DNA from: Octopus vulgaris
Taxonomy: Eukaryota
Assembly (NCBI GenBank): GCA_951406725.2
Contig: OX597832.1
Location: 7,254,001-7,318,000, forward strand
Length of the DNA stretch: 64,000 bases
Direction of reading: 5' to 3'
Of the stretch, positions 9,096 through 53,483 are shown in pieces. A program made the position numbers and the translations under genes. The notes under the pieces were generated by a model that saw nothing but the letters and a program-made list of their open reading frames with translations, ran no database searches and was not told where the DNA came from. Each line of letters begins with the position of its first letter. Positions within the stretch are counted from its first letter, which is position 1.

Positions 9096-10467
9096 TCAAT
9101 AGGTATGTATGATCCAGGGATGCAGCTGTAGGGAGTTAGTAAGCTTTAAACTATAGGCAGCTAGTATAGAGAACAAAAAGTGAACAGTATACGATAGATT
9201 ATATTTATTAACATTGTAAGTTACACACTGCTTTCCATATCAAAGTTAAAAGGAATTTTAATAAGCTGGTTGTTTCCATGCAACTCACAGTTTAGAAACT
9301 AACATTGCTAAGAATGCAAATAAATATCTCAAATATATAAAGACTGGAACAGGTTGAATATCAACTACAATTGTTTCATAACTAGCTGAAGTTTGTTACA
9401 TAAGTATTAATAAACACACTGTAGCTTAGCTAATCTTCTGGTCATAGTCACCTCAATGAAGTTTATGATTAGGTTTGCTAAGCTGTGTTGTGTTTGTTAC
9501 TGCTTATCTAATGAACTTCACCTAGTTATGAAAAAATTGTACCCTGGGTTAGTGTCTTCTGCTGTATCTCTGGGTTGATCAAAGCTTGTGAGTGTATTTG
9601 GGAGATAGAAACTCTAAGAATCCTGTGTGTGTGTGTAGGTTTGTCTGATCACTACTGCTTGACAGTGTTGATATGTTTACGTTCCTGTAGCTTAGTGGTT
9701 CAGAGACAGAATAAATACTAGGCTTTAAAAAAAAATCCTGGGGTGCTCCAGTATGACTACAGTCAAATGACTGAAACAGATAAAAGATAAAGCTATTCTA
9801 CCTGTTCCACTCCTCATATATATGTAAATATATATATATATGTGTATAAAGATATCTTCTATGTAGTTGCTTGACCTGCTAGGAATAGTTACCAGATCTC
9901 CCTCCTTTCACATTCTACCACCTTGAAAACAAAGGACACTTGGAATAGTCCTGAAAAACAAAGATAAAGAAACAAAAAAAACAAAACAAAACAAAATAAG
10001 AGGGCCATGGTTGGATTGCCTTTAGTTATGTCTTCTGTCCAACTTAAGCCAATTTAGGGCCAAACTACAATAAACATTATGTTGCTCTTATCTCCTTGTT
10101 ACTAAACCACTAACTTCATTTAATTTCAAACAACTAATAATTACTTTTGTCTTTCTTTTTACTGGTTTGGTCTGTAATAAGGGGTTGTTTCCCCATGGCC
10201 TTTGCAGACCCGCGAAGACCAGTGGGATCAATGTGGTTGATGTTCTTGCACGACTGCACAAAAAATGTGGGCAGGTAGGGAATTCCAGAGTGGGGTCACC
10301 ATTCTATGGAGAAAGGATCAGGAGAAGTAGCCAGAGTGTGATCTGTGAGTGGTTGGTCTTGGTAGACAATGTGTGTGATGGATGAAAAGAGGAGACATAA
10401 GGGAGTCAGGTGGGTATGGGTGGAAGTAGCATGGGGTCAATCAGCTCTGAGGAGAAGAGGTCACTGT

Positions 10468-15134: not shown

Positions 15135-15403
15135 TATATTTAAGAGATGAGGAATTATGTACATTATTTACGGATATATGGCATAGTGGTTAAGAGTGCG
15201 GGCTAATAACCCCAAGATTCCGAGTTCAATTCCAGGCAGTGACCTTAATAATAATAACAACAACATCGAAAAATACCTTAGGAATGAGAACTTAGGTTCA
15301 AAATTTCTCCAAGACACCTGATGAATGCTGGAGGGTATATCAGTCGAAACGTTGTGTTAACAAACAAGATGAGGACAAATATCTGTCAAATGTAAATAAT
15401 GTA
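15135..15403 (+). mobile_element. tRNA-headed element carrying a minimal hammerhead motif, with short inverted termini
   Basis: TGGCATAGTGG A box and GAGTTCAATTCC B box (~15179-15233); CTGATGA..GAAACGTT at 15318-15353; TACATTATTTAC / GTAAATAATGTA ends. Confidence 0.65.
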
Positions 15404-16122
15404 TATTACAGATACTATAACAGTGCATTTTATAATCTATGACACTGTATTTCAGAAGTTCATGATGATGATGATGATCATCATCATTTAACATCCATTT
15501 TCTGTGCTGGCATGGATTTGATGGTTTGACAGGATCTGGCGAGCTGCAGGGCTACCCCAAGTTTCAGTGTCAGCTTTGGCCATTTTCCCTATGGCTGGAT
15601 GTCCTTTTCCTAATGCCAACCACCTTACAGTGTCTACTAGGTGCTGTTTACGTGCTCTAGTGCTCTAAGTTGCAAGACTGAAAACGAACAGAAATGGGAA
15701 AGCCTCTGCCCAATGACTAAGTGTGTGTATGTGTTTGGGGTATGTTAGAGAGATGGGAGCTGGCTTTATGCCAGGTGCTTAGAAGCTAAAGTATGATACA
15801 GATGTCTTGCAGAATTGCAGAAGCTTTGTAGAGTTGGTGATCATCATCAATATCATTACCACCATCATTCTTACACCTGCTTTTTCATGATGATGATAAC
15901 ACTCTCTTCCACTTTTATGAGTTGGTTTATCACTTTAATACTTCTGAGTTGCTTTTGATCTGCTTGACTTTGCAAGTAACCAGTCTCTGTTCTACTTTGC
16001 TAGATATTTTCAGAATCTTAGCTGCTTTCCCTAAGGGAGCTGCCACTTTCCCTGCCATAATATCCTTAATGGATCTTTCCACTGTATAGTAATCAGCATC
16101 AGTAACTAATTCCTGTTGAATC

Positions 16123-17640: not shown

Positions 17641-19196
17641 GATTTATTTTATTCATTTAAACATATATGTTAGTATGGGAAGGGTGCCACATAAAAAGCA
17701 CTGATACTAGTGCCACGTAAAAAGCTCTGGTGATGGTGCCACATAAAAATCATCCAGTACATTCTGTAAAGTATATGGCATTAAGAACATCCAGCTGCAG
17801 AAACCCAGCCAAAACAGACTTTGGAACCTGGTGTAGCCCTTTGGCCTTGCCAGTTCCTGTCAAGCTGTCCAACCCATGCCAGCATGGAAAACAGAGATAT
17901 TAAATTTTGATGATGATGATTATGATGATGATATTGAAGCACATGTTTTTGCCACTGGGTAGTTACAGCTTTTTTGTATAAAAGCAACAATGGGAGGATA
18001 TCATCCTACCTTCATAAAACCAAAGGTGAGGCAGGAGGTGGGGTTTCAAAGAAATTTATGTAATTTTTTTCATCTGTCTGTTTCTCATTTGCATTGTTAT
18101 AAATGATATTTATTGTTAGTGTTGTTTTGTCCTTGGTTGGCCTTGGTGGACAAACCCATGATCAAACTCATTTGAAGCATCATTACTTTGAGCAGTTACT
18201 GTGTAGCAAGGAGTACATTGTCCAGTGTTCCTATCTCTTTTCAAATAGGTAGCATGTGTGATTTGAAGGTAATGTAGTTGCTGCTTTTAGCATGTTATGT
18301 GACCATACTAAGGTTCCATATTGTTGCAATTAGCAGTCATATTACCTACCAGTAAAATGTATTTGTTAACTTTTAAATGGTTGGAAAGGGTTGCATGAAT
18401 GTGTGTGTATGCCAGACAGGTAAATAAATACAAAAACTATAAAATTCATATGAGGTTCTTGCATTGTTGTTGTCAAATGAATGCACAAATGAAGAGAAAT
18501 CAGTGCACTTATTCCATCCAGAGCTAGTTGAAGCATCACTTTCTTCTGTGCTCTCTAGAGCATCATCATCATCTACTTCATCTGATGAAGAAGAAAAGTC
18601 AGAAAATTGCCAGTACTGCCTGACTGGCCCTTGCGCTGGTTGCACGTAAAAGCACCCACTACACTCTCGGAGGGGTTGGCGTTAGGAAGGGCATCCTGTA
18701 GAAACTCTGCCAGATCAGATTGGAGTCTGGTGCAGCCATCTGGTTCGCCAGACCACAGTCAAATCGTCCAACCCATGCTAGCATGGAAAGCGGACGTTAA
18801 ATGATGATGATAATGATGATAAATCTTCCATTTGTGACTATATTTCTCCCATCATTAAGGGTCACTTTACTCAGGCGCATTTGACAAAGGAATGCTTGGG
18901 TGTCAATTGTTGATGGCTGTATCCATGTCAAAATTTTAAAACATCGATTGATGATGTCCACTGTTCTCTATTGAAACATCAATTGATGATTTTTGCCATT
19001 TAGCTTTTAAGCCAGCAATATCAGGCCCAAATATTCCACCTGTTATATGTTCAAACTAGCCAGATTCAACCTCTCACACCTACTTATAACACTTCTAACA
19101 CTTGATCCCACATAGTCTCCATCCCTCTATACTGAAACCATATAGTAGGTTGTACCTCATGTTCTTGTTTTTTATCTTATATAACAAAACTTTATT

Positions 19197-19433
19197 TTAA
19201 CGCTTTAACATTTAAACTGGCCATATCCAACCAAATTATTTTACCTGTTTTATGTTCAAACTGACTAGATCCAGCCTTTCCTACCAGCCCTACAATGTCA
19301 TTCTAAGAATAAAACCATCAAACAATCACATCACTGAAATTTTGAAGCTATGAGATAATGATTGATTAATTTAAAACAACGTGAGTTAATAAGTGTTAAA
19401 TTGGACAGAGTAATTTGAATGCTAAAGGGTTAA
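19197..19433. mobile_element. piggyBac-type MITE
   Basis: TTAA-CGCTTTAAC ... GCTAAAGGG-TTAA; ends ~50 nt before the last NUS1 acceptor. Confidence 0.8.
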
Positions 19434-19485
19434 TGCCAGTTTTATCAATTATATTTCTAATTATTTAATTTCCTCTTTATTTCAG

Positions 19486-19576
19486 ACCTTGTCCATCACA
19501 TGTAGGTTTGGATTACCTAACATATCTTAGCACTTTAATAGACTATGCTAATTCATCACAGCGCTGCGGTAAATAA
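19486..19576 (+). CDS. NUS1: NUS1/NgBR last coding exon
   Basis: tttcAG|A, phase 2; PCPSHVGLDYLTYLSTLIDYANSSQRCGK-TAA; ends in the C-terminal RxG motif of NgBR/Nus1 (human QRLGK). Confidence 0.95.
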
Positions 19577-20899
19577 AGAAATGACTTGTTTCCCATTCCC
19601 ATATCTCTCCTCCTCCTCTTGTTTCTCTGTAAAGCTGTTCAAAGGTTTAATGATTGTTTTGTTGTTGTTATTGTTTCCTCAAAGATTCAGAAATAAAATG
19701 CCAAAGGAAAAAGATTTAAAAAAAAAAAAATACAAATCAAACTGAAATATAAAACACTTGGTGAGGAAAATGAAAATCTCTTCAAAGATGAACATCTTCT
19801 TTGCAGAAGATCAGCAGAAACTTTTAAGGTCTTTTGGAACAAGTTGCTTTGTCTTGGTAGATCAAACTAAAAAAATTTCTAAGTCTCTCATTTAGATTAC
19901 ATAGGAGATGGCAACCTAATGAAGGGAGCTAATTCAAATGTCTTTTTTTGTCTCACTAATAACAGGGTAGATTTAGATCAGTGGTTACCATAGTGATCCA
20001 TTTTGGAAAATCAATAACTCTCTCATTCTCTTTTGCTTTATATTTCAATTAAAAAAAAAGTCAATTTTTCAAAAAAATTATTGAGTTAACATTTGATACA
20101 AGGGAAAAACATTCCTCAGTTTTTTGTTGGCAGTAAATGTTGTGTTGTAGCCCTTATGCCTAGCTATGGCTTATTGTACAGCATTTTCATAAATTTGAAT
20201 TTTTCCATACATTTCAAAAGTAAAGGATTTTGCCTTTGTAGCACTTCCAGGATTATAACCCAATTTGGGTTGCTACCCACAAACTGGGAACCACTGATTT
20301 AGATAAACTATTCTTCTTAGTATATAAATATGTAGCCAGCTGTATTTGGATGATGTGTTAGGGGTTGAGTACCTGCTGTGTGTGTTGTTTGTAACTGTCA
20401 TAGAATTTTCACAGCAACTGAGATGAGAATAAAAATACATAATGTTCACCTCCAGTTAAAAAAACAAAAACAATTTATTACTATGTATAGATAATTAGAT
20501 AATACTTTGGGTGAGCATTTTGAGATTTGGCTTTAGTAAATACAATTTATAATTGCATTTAATAGACATTTCTCAATTCATCAGGTTATCCTAAAGAAGC
20601 AATGTCATTTTTGCAACAAGATTGAACGTAAAACTAGAGTAAACTAATTTTTTTATTAACTAATCACTTTAAAAATTATTCGTTTTCATTTCTGCTAATG
20701 ACAGAAAATTGTTTCAATGCCATGTTTTCTAAATTCAGATGATTTTCAGGAGAAAAACTTTAAAAATTTGAGTTTACCTCATTACAGAAAATTATACATT
20801 AAAAAGAAAAAAATATTTTATATATTTTTATTTCTAAAAGTAATATATTTTTCCTGGGGAACCTGGCAAAATTTAGAGATTAATCTGTAGTTTTAAAAT

Positions 20900-21610
20900 C
20901 ATACAGAAATGGCCAATATGAGAGTGAGGATCTCTAATAAAATTTCTCTGGTTTTTACTGAAGCAATTCCTGCAATATGGTAACTTGTATTGTCATAGTA
21001 GATCATAATTCCTTTCTGGTCAACCAAAGAGTATTTTTCCCTTCTTAGTAGTGTGGTAATGTCCAATAGTTTCAGATGTTGACAACAAATCTCAGTAGTG
21101 GTTCTATGATTGGGTAGAGACAACTTGCCTCTGATTGAATTCCGAAGTGATAGATACTGATATTTTGCCATTTTTGTGGCCTATCAACATCATGTATCTG
21201 AACTGAACTGTGTCGTAGCTGTTCTCATATATCTTCATTGAAAATACTTGGTAAAACACCCTCCCTTTTGGTTATGGCATAACTAGTCTTCCTAAGCAAA
21301 CTTACAAGTCTGATCTGCTTAAAGCTCTCTAACGGAAACCTCAATTTCTATCATTATTCACTCAAGCAATTCATAAGCAGAGTTTGATATGGTGAAAGAT
21401 GTTTATGCATCTCATCTCATCTCATTTCATTTCATTTCATCTTATCAACTAACAACTGTCATTCCACTCACTTTCCTGACTTTAATACTTCTCCACAGAG
21501 TTCCATGTATTGATGTATTGGAGGAAGGAGAGGAATTTTGAATATTTTCAGCCATTTGTTAATAGTTGTGCAACATTGCTGTTTAGGTATCATGAATAGA
21601 TAATTAGATA
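20900..21610 (-). mobile_element. Highly decayed mariner transposase remnant
   Basis: LPNHRTTTEICCQHLKLL..LVDQKGIMIYYDN resembles the mariner catalytic-domain stretch (..KGVILHHDNA). Confidence 0.55.
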
Positions 21611-22110
21611 ATCAGTATGTATGTGTGTGTGTGTGTGAACACACGTATATTCATGATGTGTGTGTGTGTGTGTGTGTGGATATATATATAGATATATATG
21701 TAATTTATTCATGATGTGTGTGTATACACATGCCATGAAAATATATGTGGGTGAATGTGTCTGTATATATTAGGATAGGCATTTGAAATTGATCTCTTTG
21801 TCCATTTTGAAATGAGATGTTACTTATGGAATGAAGTCATAACTGAGGGGGATGAAATATAATTGATCTCATTGAAGACTCAGTTTGGTCTAGCTATTTA
21901 GATAAAGCCTCTACAATTAGCTCTGTTTGAACTGAAGTACTACGCAGATACAACTAACTAAATACTTAGGGACCTCCCAGTTTTACAGAAGTGCAGTATC
22001 TATCAGCTTGTGTTTGGTTCAATATTTGATCAACATTTTAATCCCATCATATCTCCTATATTAGAAACATTTTAGGATTTACTGATTTAAAACACACCAT
22101 TTCTTATATT

Positions 22111-22668
22111 TTAATTCTTTTGATACTGACCTGCCTGATACCACTTCTGCTTATATAAAAAAAAACTTTTCTTTTTAAGACTTCACGTTTAAATTAAAGC
22201 CTTCGATCTTAATTTTATTTAAGATTCATTTTGTTAAGCTCTGTTCCAAATACCAGCAGAATAACAGCAGGGTTAGTTACTTTGTTAAATCCTCTCATAT
22301 TCTTGGTTATTTACAAAAATAGACAATGTTTTACCTTAGAAATATGGTGACAAAAGGCTTAAAGGCTGCAAGGTTTTTGTTGTAATGTGTCAAGAAATAA
22401 GCCACAGCCTGTACTGCTGCTGTTACTAACATATTTCTGTTGAAATGCACTTACCATATTTCTGTTGAAATGCACTGCCTTTGTTCTAATTAATTTTGAA
22501 AATGGTGAAGAATTTAGTAAAGTAACTTTGACCTTTATTAACCTGGCGTTTGGCACATAAATCAACATGAAATTTTGAAAGAAAGATTTTATTTTGCTCA
22601 CTTTAAACTTGAAGTTTGTATCATAGAAGCAGAGGTGGTCTTGGGTGGGTTGGTATCAAATAGGTTAA
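22111..22668. mobile_element. Second piggyBac-type MITE family
   Basis: TTAA-TTCTTTTGATACTGACCTGCC ... GGGTGGGTTGGTATCAAATAGG-TTAA degenerate TIRs. Confidence 0.65.
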
Positions 22669-22889
22669 ATGACCATATAGAAGCTCCCTTGGTGTGTCTG
22701 GTTTGAGATGCACCTTTAGTAATGGCCATCCAGTTGCTCCAACTGGATAATTCATAATCTCTCATTCAGTCTCTCTGTCTGTTTAGGAACATTCTTCAAT
22801 TTCTGCAATATACTTACATTAAATTACAATAATCAAATTGTTCTCAATAACTTTCTTTGATATCTCTTTATTTTTTATTTTATTTATAT

Positions 22890-23282
22890 AATGTAAAGTA
22901 TAAAAGCCATCTCAATATGGCTAACCACAAAGTGGGGGTGTTACTGTAGCTTTTAGCCCCAGGAGATCATAGTCTCCAGCTGGCTTTAGACACCCTTTCA
23001 GTGCCCTTGAAGTATTTGCAAAGTGAGGCCATCCCTTCCTCGCAAGCCTGAGTGATACGCATGGACCGGTTTCGAGATTATTGTCTCTTATTGTCTCGAA
23101 ACCGGTCCGTGTGTATCACTCAGGCTTGCGAGGAAGGGATGGCCTCCCTTTGCAAATACTTCAAGGGCACTGAAAGGGTGTCTAAAGCCAGCTGGAGACG
23201 ATGATCTCCTGGGGCTAAAAAGCTACAGTAACACCCCCACTTTGTGGTTAGCCATATTGAAATGGTTTTTATACTCTACATT
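22890..23282. repeat. Near-perfect long palindrome (~188-bp arms, 16-nt loop), probable inverted Penelope-like repeat
   Basis: 22890-23077 is the reverse complement of 23094-23282 with few mismatches; centre carries a hammerhead half-site GAAACCGGTC. Confidence 0.9.
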
Positions 23283-23953
23283 GTCAAGCGGTTACTGTTT
23301 ACATCTCGCTCTGAGATTTAATAATGCTTTATTTATATATATTTTTGAAAAAGCCAAGGAGAAAGTGAAGAAAACCAAAAGACCCATCTCCCCAAACTGA
23401 CAAACCCAGTATTAATACTTGGTGGTTTATTTTCAGTATTATAATATTTACTAATTAATTTTATTTCCCCTCTGATTCTAAGGTATTATTGAAGTACAAT
23501 AAACATCCCAAATAATGACAACCTCAAGGATTTCAGCATTTATTATGAATTCTCTATTGTCTGGGAAAGTATGTTTTAAATAGATTTATTATACAAATAA
23601 AGCAGAGAGTAGTATAATGAATAATACAGGTTGTATAAAGAATGCCTCTTTATTAACTACAGAGATGTATTGTTATGCATACCACTTAATTAACTGTAAT
23701 AATGTAGTATAATAAATAAAAAACATACCATGTAATTAGCAACATAAAGCCAGTAAACAATTTGGGTGAGATAGGAAGTTTTTTGGTTGAAACAAAAAAA
23801 GAAGGTTGTTTTCGAAATGGCAGAGGTGAACATGCACAAACTGATATGTTGCCGGTAGTTTTCTTTAGTGTAAAACAAGATTTGTAAAGTGTCATCAGCT
23901 TGAGTTTCCCATTGTTCTATATGCCATTACTTCAGAAGTTTACTCTGTGTATC

Positions 23954-23954
<1 letters not shown>

Positions 23955-23992
<38 letters not shown>

Positions 23993-24022
23993 ATGTATGT
24001 GTAGGTGTGTGTGTGTGATGTA

Positions 24023-24065
<43 letters not shown>

Positions 24066-24118
24066 ATATGTATGTGTGTATATATGTATGTGTGTATATA
24101 TGTATGTATGTATGTATG

Positions 24119-24159
<41 letters not shown>

Positions 24160-24200
24160 ATATATGTATGTATATATATATGTATGTATATATATATATA

Positions 24201-24235
<35 letters not shown>

Positions 24236-25171
24236 ATATATGTATGTATATATATATGTATGTATATATATATATATATGTGTGTGTGTGTATATATGTA
24301 TGTATGTATGTATATATGTATATATATATGTGTGTGTGTGTGTGTGTATGTGTGTGTGTGTGTGTATATATGTGTGTGTGTGTGTGTGTATATATGTGTG
24401 TGTGTGTATATATGTGTGTGTGTGTGTATATATATGTGTGTGTGTATATATGTATGTATGTGTGTGTATATATGTGTGTGTATGTGTGTGTATATATGTA
24501 TGTATGTGTGTGTATATATGTATGTATGTATGTATATATATGTATATATATATATGTGTATATGTATGTATGTATATATGTATATATATATGGATATATA
24601 TGTGTATATGTATGTATGTATATATGTATATATATATGGATATATATATATATATATATATGTGTATATATATGTATATATATATATGTGTATATATATG
24701 TATATATATATATGTGTATATATATATATATATATATGTGTATATATATGTATATATATATGTGTATATATATGTATATATATATATGTGTATATATATG
24801 TATATATATATACATGTGTATATGTATGTGTATATATATGTATATATATGTATGTGTATATATATGTATATATATGTATGTGTGTATATATGTATATATA
24901 TATATATGTGTATATGTATGTGTATATATATGTATATATATATATATGTGTATATGTATGTGTATATATATGTATATATATATATGTGTATATATATGTA
25001 TATATATATATATATATATATGTGTATATGTATGTGTATATGTATGTATATATGTATGTATATATATATGGATATATATATATATGTGTGTATATGTTTG
25101 TATGTATATGTATGTATGTATATATATATATATATATGTGTATATATATGTATATATATATATATATATAT
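23955..25171. repeat. ~1.2-kb compound (TA)n/(TG)n/(TATG)n microsatellite
   Basis: Direct reading; source of the long Y/I/H/T and C/V/M ORFs. Confidence 0.97.
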
Positions 25172-27034
25172 AATTTGGTGGGTGCCTGACAAAGAATGGA
25201 AGTACCTAAGAGTAAGATATGATGTTGAGTCATGAATCATCTGCAATACACTTATAATTTTCTTTTTCGTATTGACAAGAAAATTATTTGCTTGTTCATC
25301 ACAGGACAGTTTTTTGCCTCTGGTCTCTATGATGCAGTCTTGAATATGCAACATGAGTTTAGTTGTCATTACTCTCTCAATAACCTTGAGCACTCCATAT
25401 ATTAACTACTTGATCCAAAGAAAAGAAGAGCAACATTCTATATTTTTGTTTTTTGTTTTCCCTAAAACCCATTTGTTGACAGTCCATAGTAGACAAAATA
25501 ATGTCCCCGCATTCCCTTAATCTGCTGAAAGCCCTCAGTGGGTTATACTCCCTAATACACTTTCAGTCACATAAAATATAGTTAAGTGAATGCTGCTTTT
25601 CTTTGGACTAAATTAAAAAGCATAGCAGCCATGCTTCTGTGATTTTAACTACAGCTTAATTGGTGTTTTAAGTTCAAACCTGAAGCAAATGCTAAGTAGG
25701 AGATGGTTTCCAGTGATGCATGCATGACTGATTTTCTCATCAATAAGAAAAAACATTATAAATGGATTTACTGATAATGATTCGATCTTGTGTGTGTGTG
25801 TGTGTGTGTGTAAAATAACATTAGATGTGACAAAAGACTAATTGGTTAAAAGGGTTTATAGGTATGCGAATATGTTTGTGTAAAGAGAAAAATATAGAAG
25901 AAACTTGATCAAAATTGTTGATTAGGTTGGAAACAAAACAAGGAAAAAAAGAAGCAAAAGAAAAGAAAAACAAAACAAGACAAAACAGAAACCTTGATTA
26001 AAATGAGACAGAATGGTTTTGTTAATAAAACCTAATTATTTTTACCTTAACATACCTGTTTAATTTATTTGTTGTGTTTCTCTTTTTTCCTTCTGACATG
26101 GGCACATGTATTTCTCTTTTCTTCCTTTTACTTAGGTTTAACACTATTACTTGTACACTATTACTTGAATCCAGAGTTGATTCTATTGCAAATATTTGGG
26201 CCAAGTCCCTAATCTGAGAATAAATTATTCTCTTCCTCTCAACCCTCTCAGAAATCCTGAGGAAGGCCATAAACTCAGCCTTTCCTCCACTGATTGTTAA
26301 AAGTAAAAACATGGTCCATTTTTCATTTTACAAAGCCATTATTTTCTGTTTAAAAAAAATTTTTTTTTTTTTTACTTGTTTCAGTCATTTGACTGCAGCC
26401 ATGCTATTGGACTGCCTTAAAGGGTTTTTTAGTTGAAGAAATCAACCGCAGGACTTATTCTTTGTAAGCATAGTACTTATTCTATCGGTATCTTTTGCTG
26501 AACCGCTAAGATATGAGGGTGCAAACACACCAGCATCGGTTGTCAATCCATAGTGGGGGACAAACAAAGACACATTCATAAAGATGTGTGTTTGTATATA
26601 TATATATATATATATATATATGTAATATAAATAATATATAAATATATGCATATATACATACATATATGTACATACCTACATATATATGTATATATGCATG
26701 CATATATGGGTACAGTACATAAAAAAAACGTGTAACACAATGAGATGCGAAAACATAAAAACAAAACATAGAAACGAACTTTTTTTCAAATAACAAAAAA
26801 GAAACGGAGCACAAGACATACAACACAAGGAATATTCCCCTTCTTCAGTTGTCCCTGTTTCATCTACTCCACGTTTTGAAGGTAAGGACAAGACGCAACT
26901 TCGTTGAAACAGTCCTTCCCGCAAAGCAAATTAAATAAAATTTGGGATTTTTTGCGGAGGGTGAAAGTGGTAACAAGAACAGGAGAGTAAGAACAAAACA
27001 GTAAAAACAATAAAAAAGTAAAAACAGTAAAAGA

Positions 27035-29239
27035 CAGAACCGTTGCTAATATGATAGTATTGCCTACATGTAGAATTGATCCTCTTGATTCAGATGCTTT
27101 TATTGAAAAATTTCTGGATCCTAAACCAAATTTAGGCTACGGGTTCGAGAGAAAGATAGCAGAAGTGGTTATCAAGAAGATTGTAACAGCTACCTAAGAA
27201 AATAATATTTGCAAAAGAGCACAACGATTTCTACTCTGCCTTTATAAAGAACTCAAGCACTGTTTGCCAGAAAATATTAATATACTGAGGAATATCAAAT
27301 GCTTTTCAGTAGAGAATATTTTGCAGCATTTCAAAGAGCCAATTTTACCTGTCTTAGAAGCAATGCATTTAAATGAAGAAAAAATTGCTTCGATTGAAAT
27401 TCAGTTTAATAGCATTCATTTATGAGAGGTGTATGAAAAGTCTTGAGCCTCAAGAAAACAAAACAGAGTACAAGACTTCTGATGATATATTTTCAACATA
27501 GTCCCCCTCTATGGCTGAACACTTTGTCCAGCGCTGCTGAAGCGTCATTATCCCGGTGTAGAGGCACTCTTTTGTTTGCGACTCCAAGGAACTTCCCACA
27601 GCGTCTATGACTTCATTGTCACTGGCAAAATGGCGACCAGCCAGCGCTTTTTTCATTTTGGAAATAGAGGAAAGTCAGAGGGGGATAAGCCTGGCAAAAA
27701 TAATGGATGAGGAACAAGTTCGTATCCACAATCACGAATTGTTGCCATGGTTGGAGCATTGTGGTGATGAAAAAGGACTCCTCTGGTGAGCATTCCTGGC
27801 CTTTTTCTTTGATTGCTTCTCAGAGGTGTTTTAGTAACTGAGAATAATACAGCCTTGTCACAGTGTGACCCTTTTCAAGGTAATTGAACAGCAAGACACC
27901 TTGAGAATCCTAAAAAACTGACACCATAACGTTACCAGCCGAAGGAATGACCCTGGGGTAGGAAAAGATGTGTGCTTCCACTGCTTTGGTTTCAGGCTGG
28001 TAGTGATGAATCCAACTTTCGTCCATAGTAATGAAATGAGTAAGAAAATTCTCTTCATCAGCTTCAAACAGTTTCAGATTGCTCGTGGACAAAGTGCACC
28101 TGGTGCGTTTCTGTTCAGGTGTGAAAAGGCGAGAGGCCCACCTTGCAGAAACCTTGAGAACCCAAGTTCTTTTGTCACAATGTTTTCTACTCTTTCAGTT
28201 GAGATGCCCAGTCTCTCAGCTATCTGAAGACATGATATTCGACGATCTTGCATTATCATACCAAGAGCAAGGTCAATGTTGTCCTCAATGATTGCAGTTG
28301 GAGGTCTCTCTGGTCTGAGATCATCTTCCACACTCTCCCTGCCACGCTGGAATTCATTTACCCAGCTTTTGACTGTTGCAAATGAAGGAGCATTGTCTGT
28401 TAAGGTTCTCACCATATCTTCATGGATTTCTGATGGAGTCATGCCTTTCAAATGAAGGTACTTTATGACAGCACGATACTCAGTTTTCTCCATTGTAACC
28501 TTGACACTTGTTTATTCAAAATTCTGCAAAAAAAAAAAAACAAAAACAAAAAAAAAACTAAAGTACCAGAATCATGAAAATGAGCAAGAATACTCCAAAA
28601 AGACTGTACTTACCAGAAAAAATTGTTTCAGCTACCTAGCAGCCCCATTTCTAGGTTAGGCTCAAAACTTTTCATACAACCCTCATAGTTAAATGGACGA
28701 ATACATCTAATACTGAGGTATTCTGGCTGGAAGTTTTGGAATATAAAGATGCTGTTGAAGGAAATCCTTTTAGAGATGTTGCAAATTTTACCATCAATCT
28801 ATTGACATTTCCAAACTCAAATGCAGAAGTTGAATGGTTGCTCAGTTAGTATAGGTGTATTCAAATCAAAATTGAAAAGCAAACTGCATCTTCCTATGCT
28901 TAGATCAATACTACCTATAAAATATGGCCTGAAAAGATATGGCAAATGTTGCAAAGACTTCGCTTTTCCAAAACACATAATTATCAAGATAGGAACCTTG
29001 AATGTATATAGAAGTCATGACCTAGGACTGCAGCTGAAAGTGGTCAAATCAGTGAAATTCGAGAAATTATTTCTCAATGCTGAATATAATTAAAGAAAGT
29101 AAATAAAAATGTAAATAAAAATTGAACTTTTTGATATAATTAATCTTTAGCATTTTTTTTCTTATTTTTAAGCATTTTTTTTTGTATTTTTTTCTACTGA
29201 AATTTAGCATAAAATTGTGATTTTAAATTGGCAACGGTG
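27035..29239 (+). mobile_element. hAT-like transposon 3' half (decayed), split by a mariner
   Basis: Frame ..EIQFNSIH| resumes after the mariner as VKWTNTSNTEVFWLEVLEYKDAVEGNPFRDVANFTINLLTFPNSNAEVE (hAT C-terminal dimerisation-like); ends in TTGGCAACGGTG TIR-like end. Confidence 0.75.
27421..28687 (-). mobile_element. Full-length defective mariner (Tc1/mariner DD34D)
   Basis: TA-flanked TIRs TGAGAGGTGTATGAAAAGT / ACTTTTCATACAACCCTCA; MEKTEYRAVIKYL.., FITMDESWIHHYQPETK, RWTKCSAIEGDYVE; frameshifts and deletions. Confidence 0.92.
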
Positions 29240-29303
29240 TGAAATCCTTCAGTTATAGTTTAAACTCAAGGGACGCAACTTTGACATGCTAATTTAAAAA
29301 GCA

Positions 29304-30190
29304 AGTCCCATAAATGCGGTTTGCTTATACTTTTATTTTTCAAAATTAAGATAAACAAAGTTCTTTTGAAATCTAAAATATACTCTCCTTCATTTTCTAC
29401 AATCTTCTTCCTTCTATCTGGTAGACTTACAAGGACCCTCTTCCAAAATCTACTTGTTCGTGACGTAAAATACTCTTCCAGTACTGTTCTGATCTCGCCT
29501 ACAGAATTCATACTTTTCCGTCCAAATGATTTTGAAGACTGCAAAATAAATGATATTCAAATAAGGTAATCTCCGGCGAATATGGTGGGTGGGGCATCGT
29601 TTCCCATTCAAATTGCTCCAGCCCCCGGAATGTCATCCTCACTGTATGTGGCTGAGCATTATTCTTAAGAAAGAACAACATTTTTCTTCTAGCGCTTACT
29701 CGAATGACCAAATCCAAACTTCTCTGCTAGTTCTTCAACAGTTACGATGGGATTTTGTTCCACCAGGGTTTGTAGGACGTCCTCGGCGAGCTCTATTTAA
29801 TCTTCTAGGACGAGGCTCGTCTTCTAGGCTGTAGTTTTCAGCTCGGAATTTCTGGAACCACCGTTGACAGTGGCTTATGCTTATTATCTGATCTCCATAT
29901 ACGGCATTAATATTCCTCGCACTTTCCGTTGCGTTATTGCCTTTATTGAACTCATAAAGCAAAATATACCGAATATGCTACTTTGTCACTTCCATTATAA
30001 CTTGGAGAAAATAACATTTAAAATCGAACTGTACTCTTCAGAACTTGCACTAAGAATAAGTTCTAGGTAAAACTACTACCTGCTTTAATAGCAAGTTGAT
30101 GCAGGTAGTTTATCCCATCCCCCTCCGACTTTTACTTCATGCAATTGACCCTCCTCCACAAAAACGCATTATTTATGGGATGACCCAATA
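29304..30190 (-). mobile_element. Defective mariner
   Basis: MLYEFNKGNNATESARNI..WFQKFRA..LEDEPR, WETMPHPPYSPEI, RRKKIVENEGEYILD; TIR-like CCCATAAAT / ATTTATGGGATGACCCAATA. Confidence 0.88.
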
Positions 30191-45949: not shown

Positions 45950-46195
45950 GCGCCCCTTTTAAAGCCTTGCCAGGCTCATGGGCCCGGTTTCCCGGTTTCA
46001 ATGGCATATGTGTTCCCCGGCTGGACGGGACGCCAGTCCATCGCAGCGTTACTCATTTTTGCCAGCTGAGTGGACTGGAGCAACGTGAAATGAAGTGTTT
46101 TACTCAAGAACACAACGCGTCGCCCGGTCCAGGAATCGAAATCACAATCGTAAGATTGATGCTGACACCCTAACCACTAAGCCACGCGCCTGCAC
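45950..46195 (-). mobile_element. V-SINE-like family C
   Basis: Reverse-complement sister of 2305-2555 with CpGs intact. Confidence 0.85.
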
Positions 46196-46374
46196 AATGG
46201 GTTATATACCTGTTGTAATTTAGTCATCCATAGTCTGATGATATTTTGGAATAAAATTCCTTCTTCAGATATTCTTAGAGACTCCATCTAAGAATATCTG
46301 AAGAAGGAATTTTATTCCGAAATATCATATCAGACTATGGATGACTAAATTACAACCGGTATATAGCCCATTGT
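46194..46374. repeat. Palindrome (~87-bp arms, 7-nt loop) containing a minimal hammerhead
   Basis: 46194-46279 is the reverse complement of 46287-46374. Confidence 0.9.
46294..46330 (+). ncRNA. Minimal type I hammerhead-ribozyme-like motif (Penelope type)
   Basis: ATAT-CTGAAGA-A-GGAAT.TTT.ATTCC-GAAA-TA-TC-ATAT: intact core, helix II, palindromic minimal helix III, AUC site. Confidence 0.6.
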
Positions 46375-46460
46375 CTATATTATAGTGCATTGTTGTGCCA
46401 TTCAAAACTTTTTATTCTTTACAAACAATACACAATGCTTCAAGCGAACTACAATACTCT

Positions 46461-51990: not shown

Positions 51991-53483
51991 AATTAAAAAT
52001 TATATTATACTATTAATATCATCAATTCAGCTATATTGAGTATTCAGTATAATATCAATTCAGTATAAATCACGAAAACAATTTTTTTTTGTGTAAAGAA
52101 ATGAAAAGATTAATTGATAAACTAAAATAAATAGTGATTCATATTTGAAAACGGTAAACAATTTATAAAATAAATTATCTGCTATGTAAAACAGTTGAAT
52201 CAGAGAAGCCTTGTGATGCTCTACATCAGCAAAAATATTCTGCCGATAGACAAGCCTTCTGGCTTGTTTATATCGCCAGGAGGCTATATTGATAGAAGCA
52301 GTATTTCTAGTCTTTCAATGTTTCACAAGAGCATGCATTGCATTCACTTGGAAAATTCTTACGCTTGCACAGACTAGTTTAGCTCCCTTTTAAGTCTAAC
52401 AGTTAGACTTAAAAGGGAGATAAACTGACTGTATATCATGACTCGTGGGGTCGTGGGTAACCGAAAGGCATAATGGTGCTACATGTTGTGCATCTGGTAG
52501 TAAACGTGTGATTGGCATTCTTGTGAAGTGACATTAATAGGATAATATAATGATTTCAAATTTTGGCACAAGGCCAGCAATTTCAAGGAAGGGTGTAAAT
52601 CGATTACATCGACCCCAGTGCTCAACTGTTACTTATTTTATCGATTCCGAAAGGATGAAAATCAAAGTTGACCTCGGTGGAATTTGAACACAGAATGTAA
52701 AAGACGGACGAAATGCCGCTAAGCATTTTCCCGGTGTGTTAACGATTTTGCCAGCTTGCCGCCTTTATTAATAGTATAATATAATGATTTTCCTACCATG
52801 ACCACCCTGTATTTTCTCATAAGTGCTGGGAACCTTAGATCACATTCGCTAACGTTTTATGAAAGATTTAGCTTTTATTTCTAGCTTGTTGAGCGACCAT
52901 ATAGAGAGCTACTTCGTTGGCTCAATTGTAATTAAGTATTAGACTGAAGTGGAGAGTTGCTGTTGTTTAGTCGAAAGCCAGCCACGCTCGAACAGATGTC
53001 TGGTTATATGTGACCTTCACCGTATCGCACTTTTGGTTACCTCTTTGGCTGCTGGCAAGGTCATTTGATTAAGAAGTTCGCTTCGAAACGGTGTGGTTTC
53101 GGTTTCGTTCCTACTTTGCGGCACCATGGGCAAGTATTTTCTTTCAGAGCTATGAGTTGACAGATACCTTGTTAGTAGAGTTTGCTAGACGGAAACTATC
53201 TAGAAGCCTTTTGTACATACATAATACTTACATACAAACATACGTACATATACATACATACACACGTACATCAAAACATACGTTCCTACATACATACATA
53301 TATACATACACATACACACATGCATGCATACATGCATACATACATACATGCATGCATACATACATACATGCATACATACATACATACATGCAAACATACA
53401 TACATGCATGCATAATACATAGATACATGCATGCATGCATACATACATACATATATGTATACATACATACATACATACATACA

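Follow-up and report, generated by a model that had tools for sequence, protein, structure and literature searches.

A probable Penelope-like insertion in Octopus vulgaris whose two head-to-head copies meet within a hammerhead helix II

A near-perfect palindrome lies downstream of a NUS1-like gene in a 64,000-nucleotide stretch of Octopus vulgaris contig OX597832.1 (hereafter, the window). We favour, with moderate confidence, its interpretation as two truncated copies of a hammerhead-bearing repeat arranged head to head, the product of a Penelope-like insertion of two cDNAs that were joined at helix II of the ribozyme motif. The insertion is of a known kind, and the position of its junction at the hammerhead helix II is its distinctive point. 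A first-pass annotation had placed the palindrome at 22890-23282, an interval that describes the arms correctly but misses both a tail of about 45 nt (23283-23327) and a 12-bp target-site duplication (TSD); the true insertion spans 22891-23327 (437 bp), inside that duplication.

The evidence on the repeat family comes from contigs of 4 of 24 listed public runs aligned to 23040-23900 at 80% likeness. Two of these runs are DNA-sized (X2 and X6) and two are guessed to be RNA runs (X1 and X20). The features discussed below are as follows.

19486..19576, + strand: last coding exon of a NUS1-like gene, with its stop at 19574-19576 (protein search)
22879..22890, + strand: left TSD copy (12-mer search); its last base also fits the end of the arm
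22891..23088, - strand: left copy, 5'-truncated and tail-less, starting at the 5' edge of helix II (23087/23088) and ending at the family inner end (equivalent to 23281/23282) (alignment; family contigs on 23066 to about 23088, loose ends at 23281)
23064..23073, - strand: GAAA, palindromic helix III and UC of the cleavage triplet of the left copy (sequence)
23074..23087, - strand: helix II in its likely native orientation, a 4-bp GAGA/UCUC stem with a 6-nt loop (suggested by the depth pattern and by the CAAT loop of a related subfamily)
23088..23097, + strand: 10-nt tandem duplication of 23078-23087; the right copy begins with its last 4 nt, TCTC (sequence; one X1 contig without difference)
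23094..23327, + strand: right copy, from the 3' strand of helix II through GAAA-CCGG-UC (23098-23107) and body to the tail
23283..23327, + strand: tail, family sequence and not flank (contig depth)
23328..23339, + strand: right TSD copy, coinciding with the family 3' end at about 23325-23330

Arms, centre and limits of the insertion

Alignment of the two arms (22890-23077 against 23094-23282, 188 and 189 nt) reveals seven substitutions and one gap, in agreement with the near-perfect arms of about 188 bp described previously, and places their present divergence at 3.7%. The RNA fold computed for 22860-23320 has an energy of -370 kcal/mol (z = -43.9), which none of 100 shuffles equalled or bettered. 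At the centre of the palindrome lies a 14-nt hairpin (23074-23087), and the sequence of 23078-23087 is repeated in tandem as 23088-23097, the 10-nt slippage-type duplication that the earlier reading had proposed. Any palindrome will form a hairpin at its centre, so the hairpin by itself is no evidence. The centre is also bordered by GAAA-CCGG-TC at 23098-23107 and by its mirror image at 23064-23073, and, given the composition of the element, GAAA, a palindrome of 2-6 nt and UH would occur together at a single fixed position with a probability of about 3 in 10,000.

The CUGANGA half of the motif, reported as missing from the locus, is indeed found ahead of the palindrome centre on neither the plus nor the minus strand. 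Since there is no core on either strand, the present copy should be unable to cleave and, judged from its sequence, is a dead fragment devoid of a catalytic core. Rfam returned no hammerhead match over 18000-30000 and, over the palindrome centre, only sub-threshold miRNA-hairpin matches, which we read as generic hairpin matches. An active hammerhead ribozyme at the locus was rejected on these grounds, with neither core nor Rfam match. The palindrome unit has no second copy elsewhere in the 64-kb window. A library fold-back chimera or an assembly artefact is ruled out by the eight differences between the arms, by the TSD and by an independent contig from run X1, which spans 23059-23146 with no differences.

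The 12-mer at 22879-22890 recurs at 23328-23339 and has no other occurrence in the 64 kb, and the seven 12-mers across junctions were found in none of the other 632 blocks of 100 nt in the window. The flanks of the insertion are 82% A+T, and the TSD is flush with the left arm on one side and with the family 3' end on the other. The right arm alone carries the tail, whose length slightly exceeds the published 30-40 bp. The junction between tail and flank is covered by at least 31 letters on both sides in one of the four runs (X20), the other three having 26-28 tail letters. No empty target site was present among the loose ends listed for contigs on the right side (23040-23900).

The repeat family and its hammerhead

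In the two DNA-sized runs, 2,235 and 2,010 contigs align to the stretch, and their summed depth, which is not equivalent to copy number, peaks at 24,000-30,000 times that of the flank. The bin at 23301-23329 reaches a summed depth of 65,543 (X2) and 224,578 (X6), compared to 39-47 in the flank. Between 23272 and 23300 depth dips, and beyond 23329, where the right TSD lies, it declines about 100-fold, indicating that the tail is family sequence and that the family 3' end coincides with the duplication. By contig depth, the family is very abundant and its copies are 3'-anchored, with a sharp 3' end at the tail. Toward the 5' side, depth declines to about 1% of its peak at helix II, which 5' truncation or subfamily divergence would be expected to produce. 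At 23281, where the left arm ends, 17 and 28 contigs have loose ends; these share a consensus (agreement 0.74-0.77) and so may represent a subfamily instead of separate insertion events.

Both arms carry a common minority letter at 23171, 23177 and 23239, against 85-93% of the X2 family depth, which suggests that they derive from one template or subfamily and subsequently drifted apart. The right arm has private letters at 23261, 23266 and 23276, where the left arm agrees with the family.

Pattern scans for the family yielded no loci in metagenome contigs, prokaryote genome contigs or viral contigs. For the open frame of 114 codons that spans the right arm, Pfam gave no match, and a search with its residues 48-92 against longer proteins left none of 9 candidates at E <= 1, a weak test; these Pfam and protein searches of the right-arm frame linked no reverse transcriptase (RT) or GIY-YIG endonuclease ORF to the family. 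A single ORF for a telomerase-related RT and a GIY-YIG endonuclease defines the autonomous members of endonuclease-positive (EN+) Penelope-like elements. In a divergent subfamily, four contigs of X20 run on for a median of 129 nt beyond 23265, possibly past the tail and into an ORF. Separately, about 20 nt of reverse-complemented tail end is joined at 23216 in contigs of both DNA-sized runs and in 2 contigs of X20, a short inverted derivative of about 130 bp that either recurs or was amplified.

Comparison with these relatives indicates that the repeat family carries a type-I minimal hammerhead that the present copy does not. In two X20 contigs from a subfamily about 86% alike, the sequence upstream of 23105 contains a hammerhead core with a single change (C at position 4), then a helix II of 4 bp closed by a CAAT loop, then GAAA, and finally a helix III of 6 nt leading into the GTC at 23105-23107. 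A contig of X2 agrees with the left part as far as 23088, after which 13 different letters follow; hand-read on the opposite strand, these resemble a decayed core that keeps 4 of the 6 fixed positions. Past 23088, the same contig also presents a helix I strand in which 5 of 6 positions pair with the bases after GUC, again in a hand reading. This upstream evidence comprises three contigs at 80% likeness among the loose ends listed, and joints of this type can stem from other repeats. The relatives thus have a CTGANGA-like core just upstream of helix II, where the first-pass annotation had predicted it for intact copies, and its identification of the centre as the 3' half of a minimal hammerhead holds.

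The same annotation took the plus-strand GAGAT/GTCTC hairpin for helix II. Contig depth suggests instead that this hairpin is the reverse complement of the native helix II, which is most likely the minus-strand reading and belongs to the left arm; the orientation is deduced from binned depth, in which loop letters are not printed. Depth is 15,013 and 6,662 at 23066, and 0 (X6) and 44 (X2, one divergent contig) at 23096. The mean depth over 23069-23097 needs about 19 and about 23 covered positions, of which the arm alone gives 9. Since contigs carrying the plus-strand loop would cover 23088-23097, and depth at 23096 is close to nil, family contigs appear to cross the minus-strand loop, and this loop starts with CAAT, like that of the X20 subfamily. 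Predicted hairpin stability counts against the minus-strand reading (-1.6 kcal/mol, compared to -3.6 kcal/mol for the plus strand), and the centre could have been flipped by a later crossover between the arms.

Two-ended priming and its alternatives

Neither arm is a simple copy of the other, because each holds sequence that the other lacks: the tail is present only in the right arm and, in the orientation deduced above, the loop and the 5' strand of helix II only in the left one. Such asymmetry is predicted by two-ended priming and not by pure self-priming, and it leads us to favour two cDNAs, one per target strand, over a pure snap-back. The PAc protein of the Anolis Poseidon element cuts and extends both strands of AT-rich DNA, and in vitro its two RT start sites bound the tail and uncleaved RNA is the main template (PMC11167929). 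The octopus locus resembles this system in its AT-rich target and, on our reading, in the extension of both strands, in two start sites that bound the tail and in an uncleaved template; the PAc study describes no joining of two cDNAs and no inversion junctions (PMC11167929).

Under two-ended priming, a presumptive endonuclease would have introduced staggered nicks 12 bp apart in the AT-rich target, generating the duplication observed. The bottom-strand nick would prime at the tail end of uncleaved element RNA, consistent with the observed asymmetry of the arms, and the top-strand nick would prime at the inner, tail-less end of such RNA, in keeping with the Poseidon work in vitro. The template is taken to be uncleaved because both arms span the cleavage site. 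The left cDNA would halt at the 5' edge of helix II, and the right cDNA within its 3' strand or earlier. Their TCTC and GAGA ends, complementary because they are copies of the two helix II strands, could then pair, either directly or after the left cDNA had folded back on itself, and a single slip on a 1-nt match could account for the 10 nt duplicated at the junction. The position of that junction, within helix II as previously proposed, and the family ends to which the outer limits correspond are observed directly.

The first-pass annotation also expected inversion to recur at helix II. Five other joints are listed in family contigs, in one contig each and with a shorter side of 20-44 letters: three opposite-strand joints (23122/23166, 23142/23194 and 23163/23212, direction not given) and two that connect a left-arm piece to 23219 and to 23186. 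None of the five falls at helix II, nor does the turn of a second palindrome in the window. These negatives are weakened by the under-assembly of perfect fold-backs, given that the centre of the locus itself is missing from both DNA-sized runs. The offsets of the three opposite-strand joints (44, 52 and 49 nt) lie near the length of the 45-nt tail and might reflect two cDNAs of similar length from two start sites, in what are three single contigs.

The second head-to-head palindrome belongs to another family and comprises 88-bp arms separated by a 7-nt spacer (46194-46279 and 46287-46374). It has a complete minimal hammerhead at 46298 on the plus strand, with its turn 11-18 nt upstream of the core, and a mirrored hammerhead copy that lacks the G of GAAA. 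Its right side is about 55 nt longer, reaching a candidate 7-bp TSD (46193-46199 and 46431-46437), so that the anatomy of 46194-46437 is like that of the 22891-23327 insertion with a different turning point. A descriptor scan located two complete hammerhead motifs in the window, at 15318 and 46298, compared to a mean of 0.025 in shuffled sequence and with none of 200 shuffles reaching two; Rfam gave only sub-threshold matches at both, none to a hammerhead family. The motif at 15318 (plus strand, complete and minimal, one helix II mismatch) lies in a third hammerhead-bearing repeat at 15157-15406, whose ends (15157-15171 and 15392-15406) form a 15-bp inverted match. Its segment at about 15179-15235 looks by eye like tRNA-type A and B boxes, with a negative ARAGORN result, and the repeat may have arisen by fusion of a SINE head with a Penelope end. 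Palindromes lacking a hammerhead motif occur at 9366-9541 (74% over 181 bp) and 52376-52426 (94% over 51 bp).

Self-priming is the published reading of rotifer Penelope junction palindromes, according to the available text of PMC3846280, and is close to what the first-pass annotation had proposed: one cDNA, or an antisense RNA, folded back at helix II and served as its own template, the centre being later flipped or its orientation misread. It places the junction exactly inside a hairpin, it explains the minority alleles common to both arms, as a self-copy gives, and a tail-primed cDNA that snapped back and stopped 45 nt short would leave a one-sided tail. A tail-primed event, however, predicts a loop orientation opposite to the one indicated by contig depth, whereas a left-primed event cannot make the tail, which is absent from the left arm up to the TSD. 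The one-sided tail and the loop orientation can both result from a single snap-back on helix II only if the centre was subsequently flipped, an extra and unseen step, and we consider this route rather unlikely. It is also conceivable that a two-ended Penelope-type insertion met at helix II by chance, through host end-joining with a templated 10-nt insert and no role for the ribozyme fold. The complementarity used is only 4 bp, and the other listed joints and the second hammerhead palindrome, all turning elsewhere, agree with such a coincidence. It would nevertheless require the two 5' ends to lie no more than about 10 nt apart, one at each strand of the same stem, in a region reached by roughly 1% of peak depth and in a family whose other joints are offset by 44-116 nt, and the apparent invisibility of perfect fold-backs in DNA contigs reduces the weight of the negative cases; we view a chance junction as quite improbable.

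A further alternative is that the palindrome is itself the mobile unit, either MITE-like or a pre-formed hairpin copied whole from a master locus. Long, near-perfect inverted arms with a TSD are compatible with this, and the inverted junction at 23216, common to 23 contigs in X2 and 13 in X6, indicates that some inverted structures do recur or are amplified. Yet the 45-nt tail separates the inverted repeat from the right TSD, family depth is anchored at the 3' end and drops sharply toward the centre, position 23096 is covered by no X6 contig and by one divergent X2 contig, and relatives have a hammerhead core where the present unit has its centre, making a mobile palindrome very unlikely. An ordinary MITE was rejected because the right arm is separated from the TSD by 45 nt of family sequence, which precludes flush terminal inverted repeats; a MITE with shared ends and centre was rejected on the near-zero depth at 23096, an argument that palindrome under-assembly weakens. 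The preference of the first-pass annotation for a Penelope-like over a MITE anatomy is sustained by the one-sided tail, the TSD and the 3'-anchored family. The reading that we retain is the two-ended insertion of two cDNAs joined at helix II.

Penelope-like elements, NUS1 and significance

The insertion probably belongs, with high confidence, to the Penelope-like elements (PLEs). It presents four of their structural features: a hammerhead in the family, a 5'-truncated copy inverted head to head at the 5' end (within 22891-23327), a one-sided tail and a short TSD in AT-rich DNA. In the accessible portions of the respective papers, an inverted 5'-truncated copy with a one-sided 30-40 bp tail is described as typical of PLEs (PMC8557442), with TSDs of 8-10 bp and palindromes at head-to-head junctions that are read as self-priming (PMC3846280). 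Inverted pLTR insertions of EN+ PLEs (Penelope/Poseidon, Neptune; Adineta vaga Pen2a and Pen3a) are, as far as those portions describe them, likewise head to head, with a one-sided tail, a short variable TSD and a junction palindrome. The present locus differs from them in lacking an ORF and a second direct repeat, and in having a tail of 45 rather than 30-40 nt. It also differs from the rotifer PLE junctions in that its junction palindrome is identifiable as a hammerhead helix II; the word "hammerhead" has no occurrence in the rotifer paper (PMC3846280), and no paper tying a Penelope inversion junction to hammerhead helix II was found in a literature search that covered mainly open-access main texts.

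In the text available from Cervera and de la Pena (2014, PMC4209133), metazoan PLE minimal hammerheads are mostly scattered single motifs, and Schistosoma harbors opposite-strand pairs 100-700 bp apart. These type-I motifs share with the octopus repeat the GAAA, the palindromic helix III loop and UH, whereas both present copies lack CUGANGA and the 5' strand of helix I, neither being expected to cleave, and their helix II is 4 bp long. Animal non-LTR retrozymes, as set out in part of bioRxiv 10.64898/2026.07.22.740005, are likewise short and non-coding, carry a type-I hammerhead and are related to PLE pLTRs. They are, however, head-to-tail tandems with complete ribozymes, and a non-LTR retrozyme was rejected for this locus, where the copies are head to head and no ribozyme is complete.

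The NUS1-like exon is assigned with a weak E-value (0.33), yet five of five matches are to NUS1 and align to its C terminus; with this caveat, the palindrome lies 3.3 kb past the NUS1 stop, as reported. Six AATAAA/ATTAAA hexamers occur between the stop region and 22200 and more occur past the element, so the 3'UTR could end on either side of it. None of the 20 public runs with matches to the locus is recorded as RNA, and 14 of them are only guessed to be so. Among the guessed-RNA contigs, X1 covers the centre, and X1 and X20 the right flank, with strand or NUS1 origin not assignable. The X1 centre contig has no differences and hence no A>G change, in an assembly type that drops rare variants, and an A>G at 23769 is also seen in DNA-sized X6. 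Further downstream, a mixed (TA)/(TG) microsatellite of about 1.3 kb, partly self-complementary, occupies 23940-25235, and right-flank contigs appear to end in it; a Mariner/Mos1-type transposase fragment lies at 28077-28511 on the minus strand (Pfam HTH_48, E = 1e-8).

According to the available text of PMC5625713, ADAR is known to act on palindromic repeats, Penelope undergoes heavy editing in lizard, and the strongest hyper-editing signal is that of octopus. The palindromic substrates described there (Xenopus Harbinger and lizard Penelope) likewise fold on themselves over about 200-400 nt without needing a neighbouring copy; the present locus, in comparison, is known as DNA sequence and its hairpin RNA is predicted. 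Editing would be unsurprising if the locus were transcribed, and NUS1 transcripts running through it would form a hairpin of about 190 bp as a by-product, the putative ADAR or Dicer substrate of the first-pass annotation.

Taken singly, the locus is an ordinary dead retroelement fragment, and its value is that of a clean fossil of how Penelope-like elements may complete their insertion. A broader proposal, which we regard as speculative and improbable, is that helix II both stalls RT and supplies the self-complementary ends that join two cDNAs, acting as a recurrent hotspot of near-perfect palindromes that seeds 3'UTR hairpins, such as that of NUS1, and feeds ADAR. If helix II were such a hotspot genome-wide, weakly active minimal hammerheads would have a structural role, and thereby a reason for being kept, and a source of long hairpin RNA would be explained in a lineage with heavy A-to-I editing.
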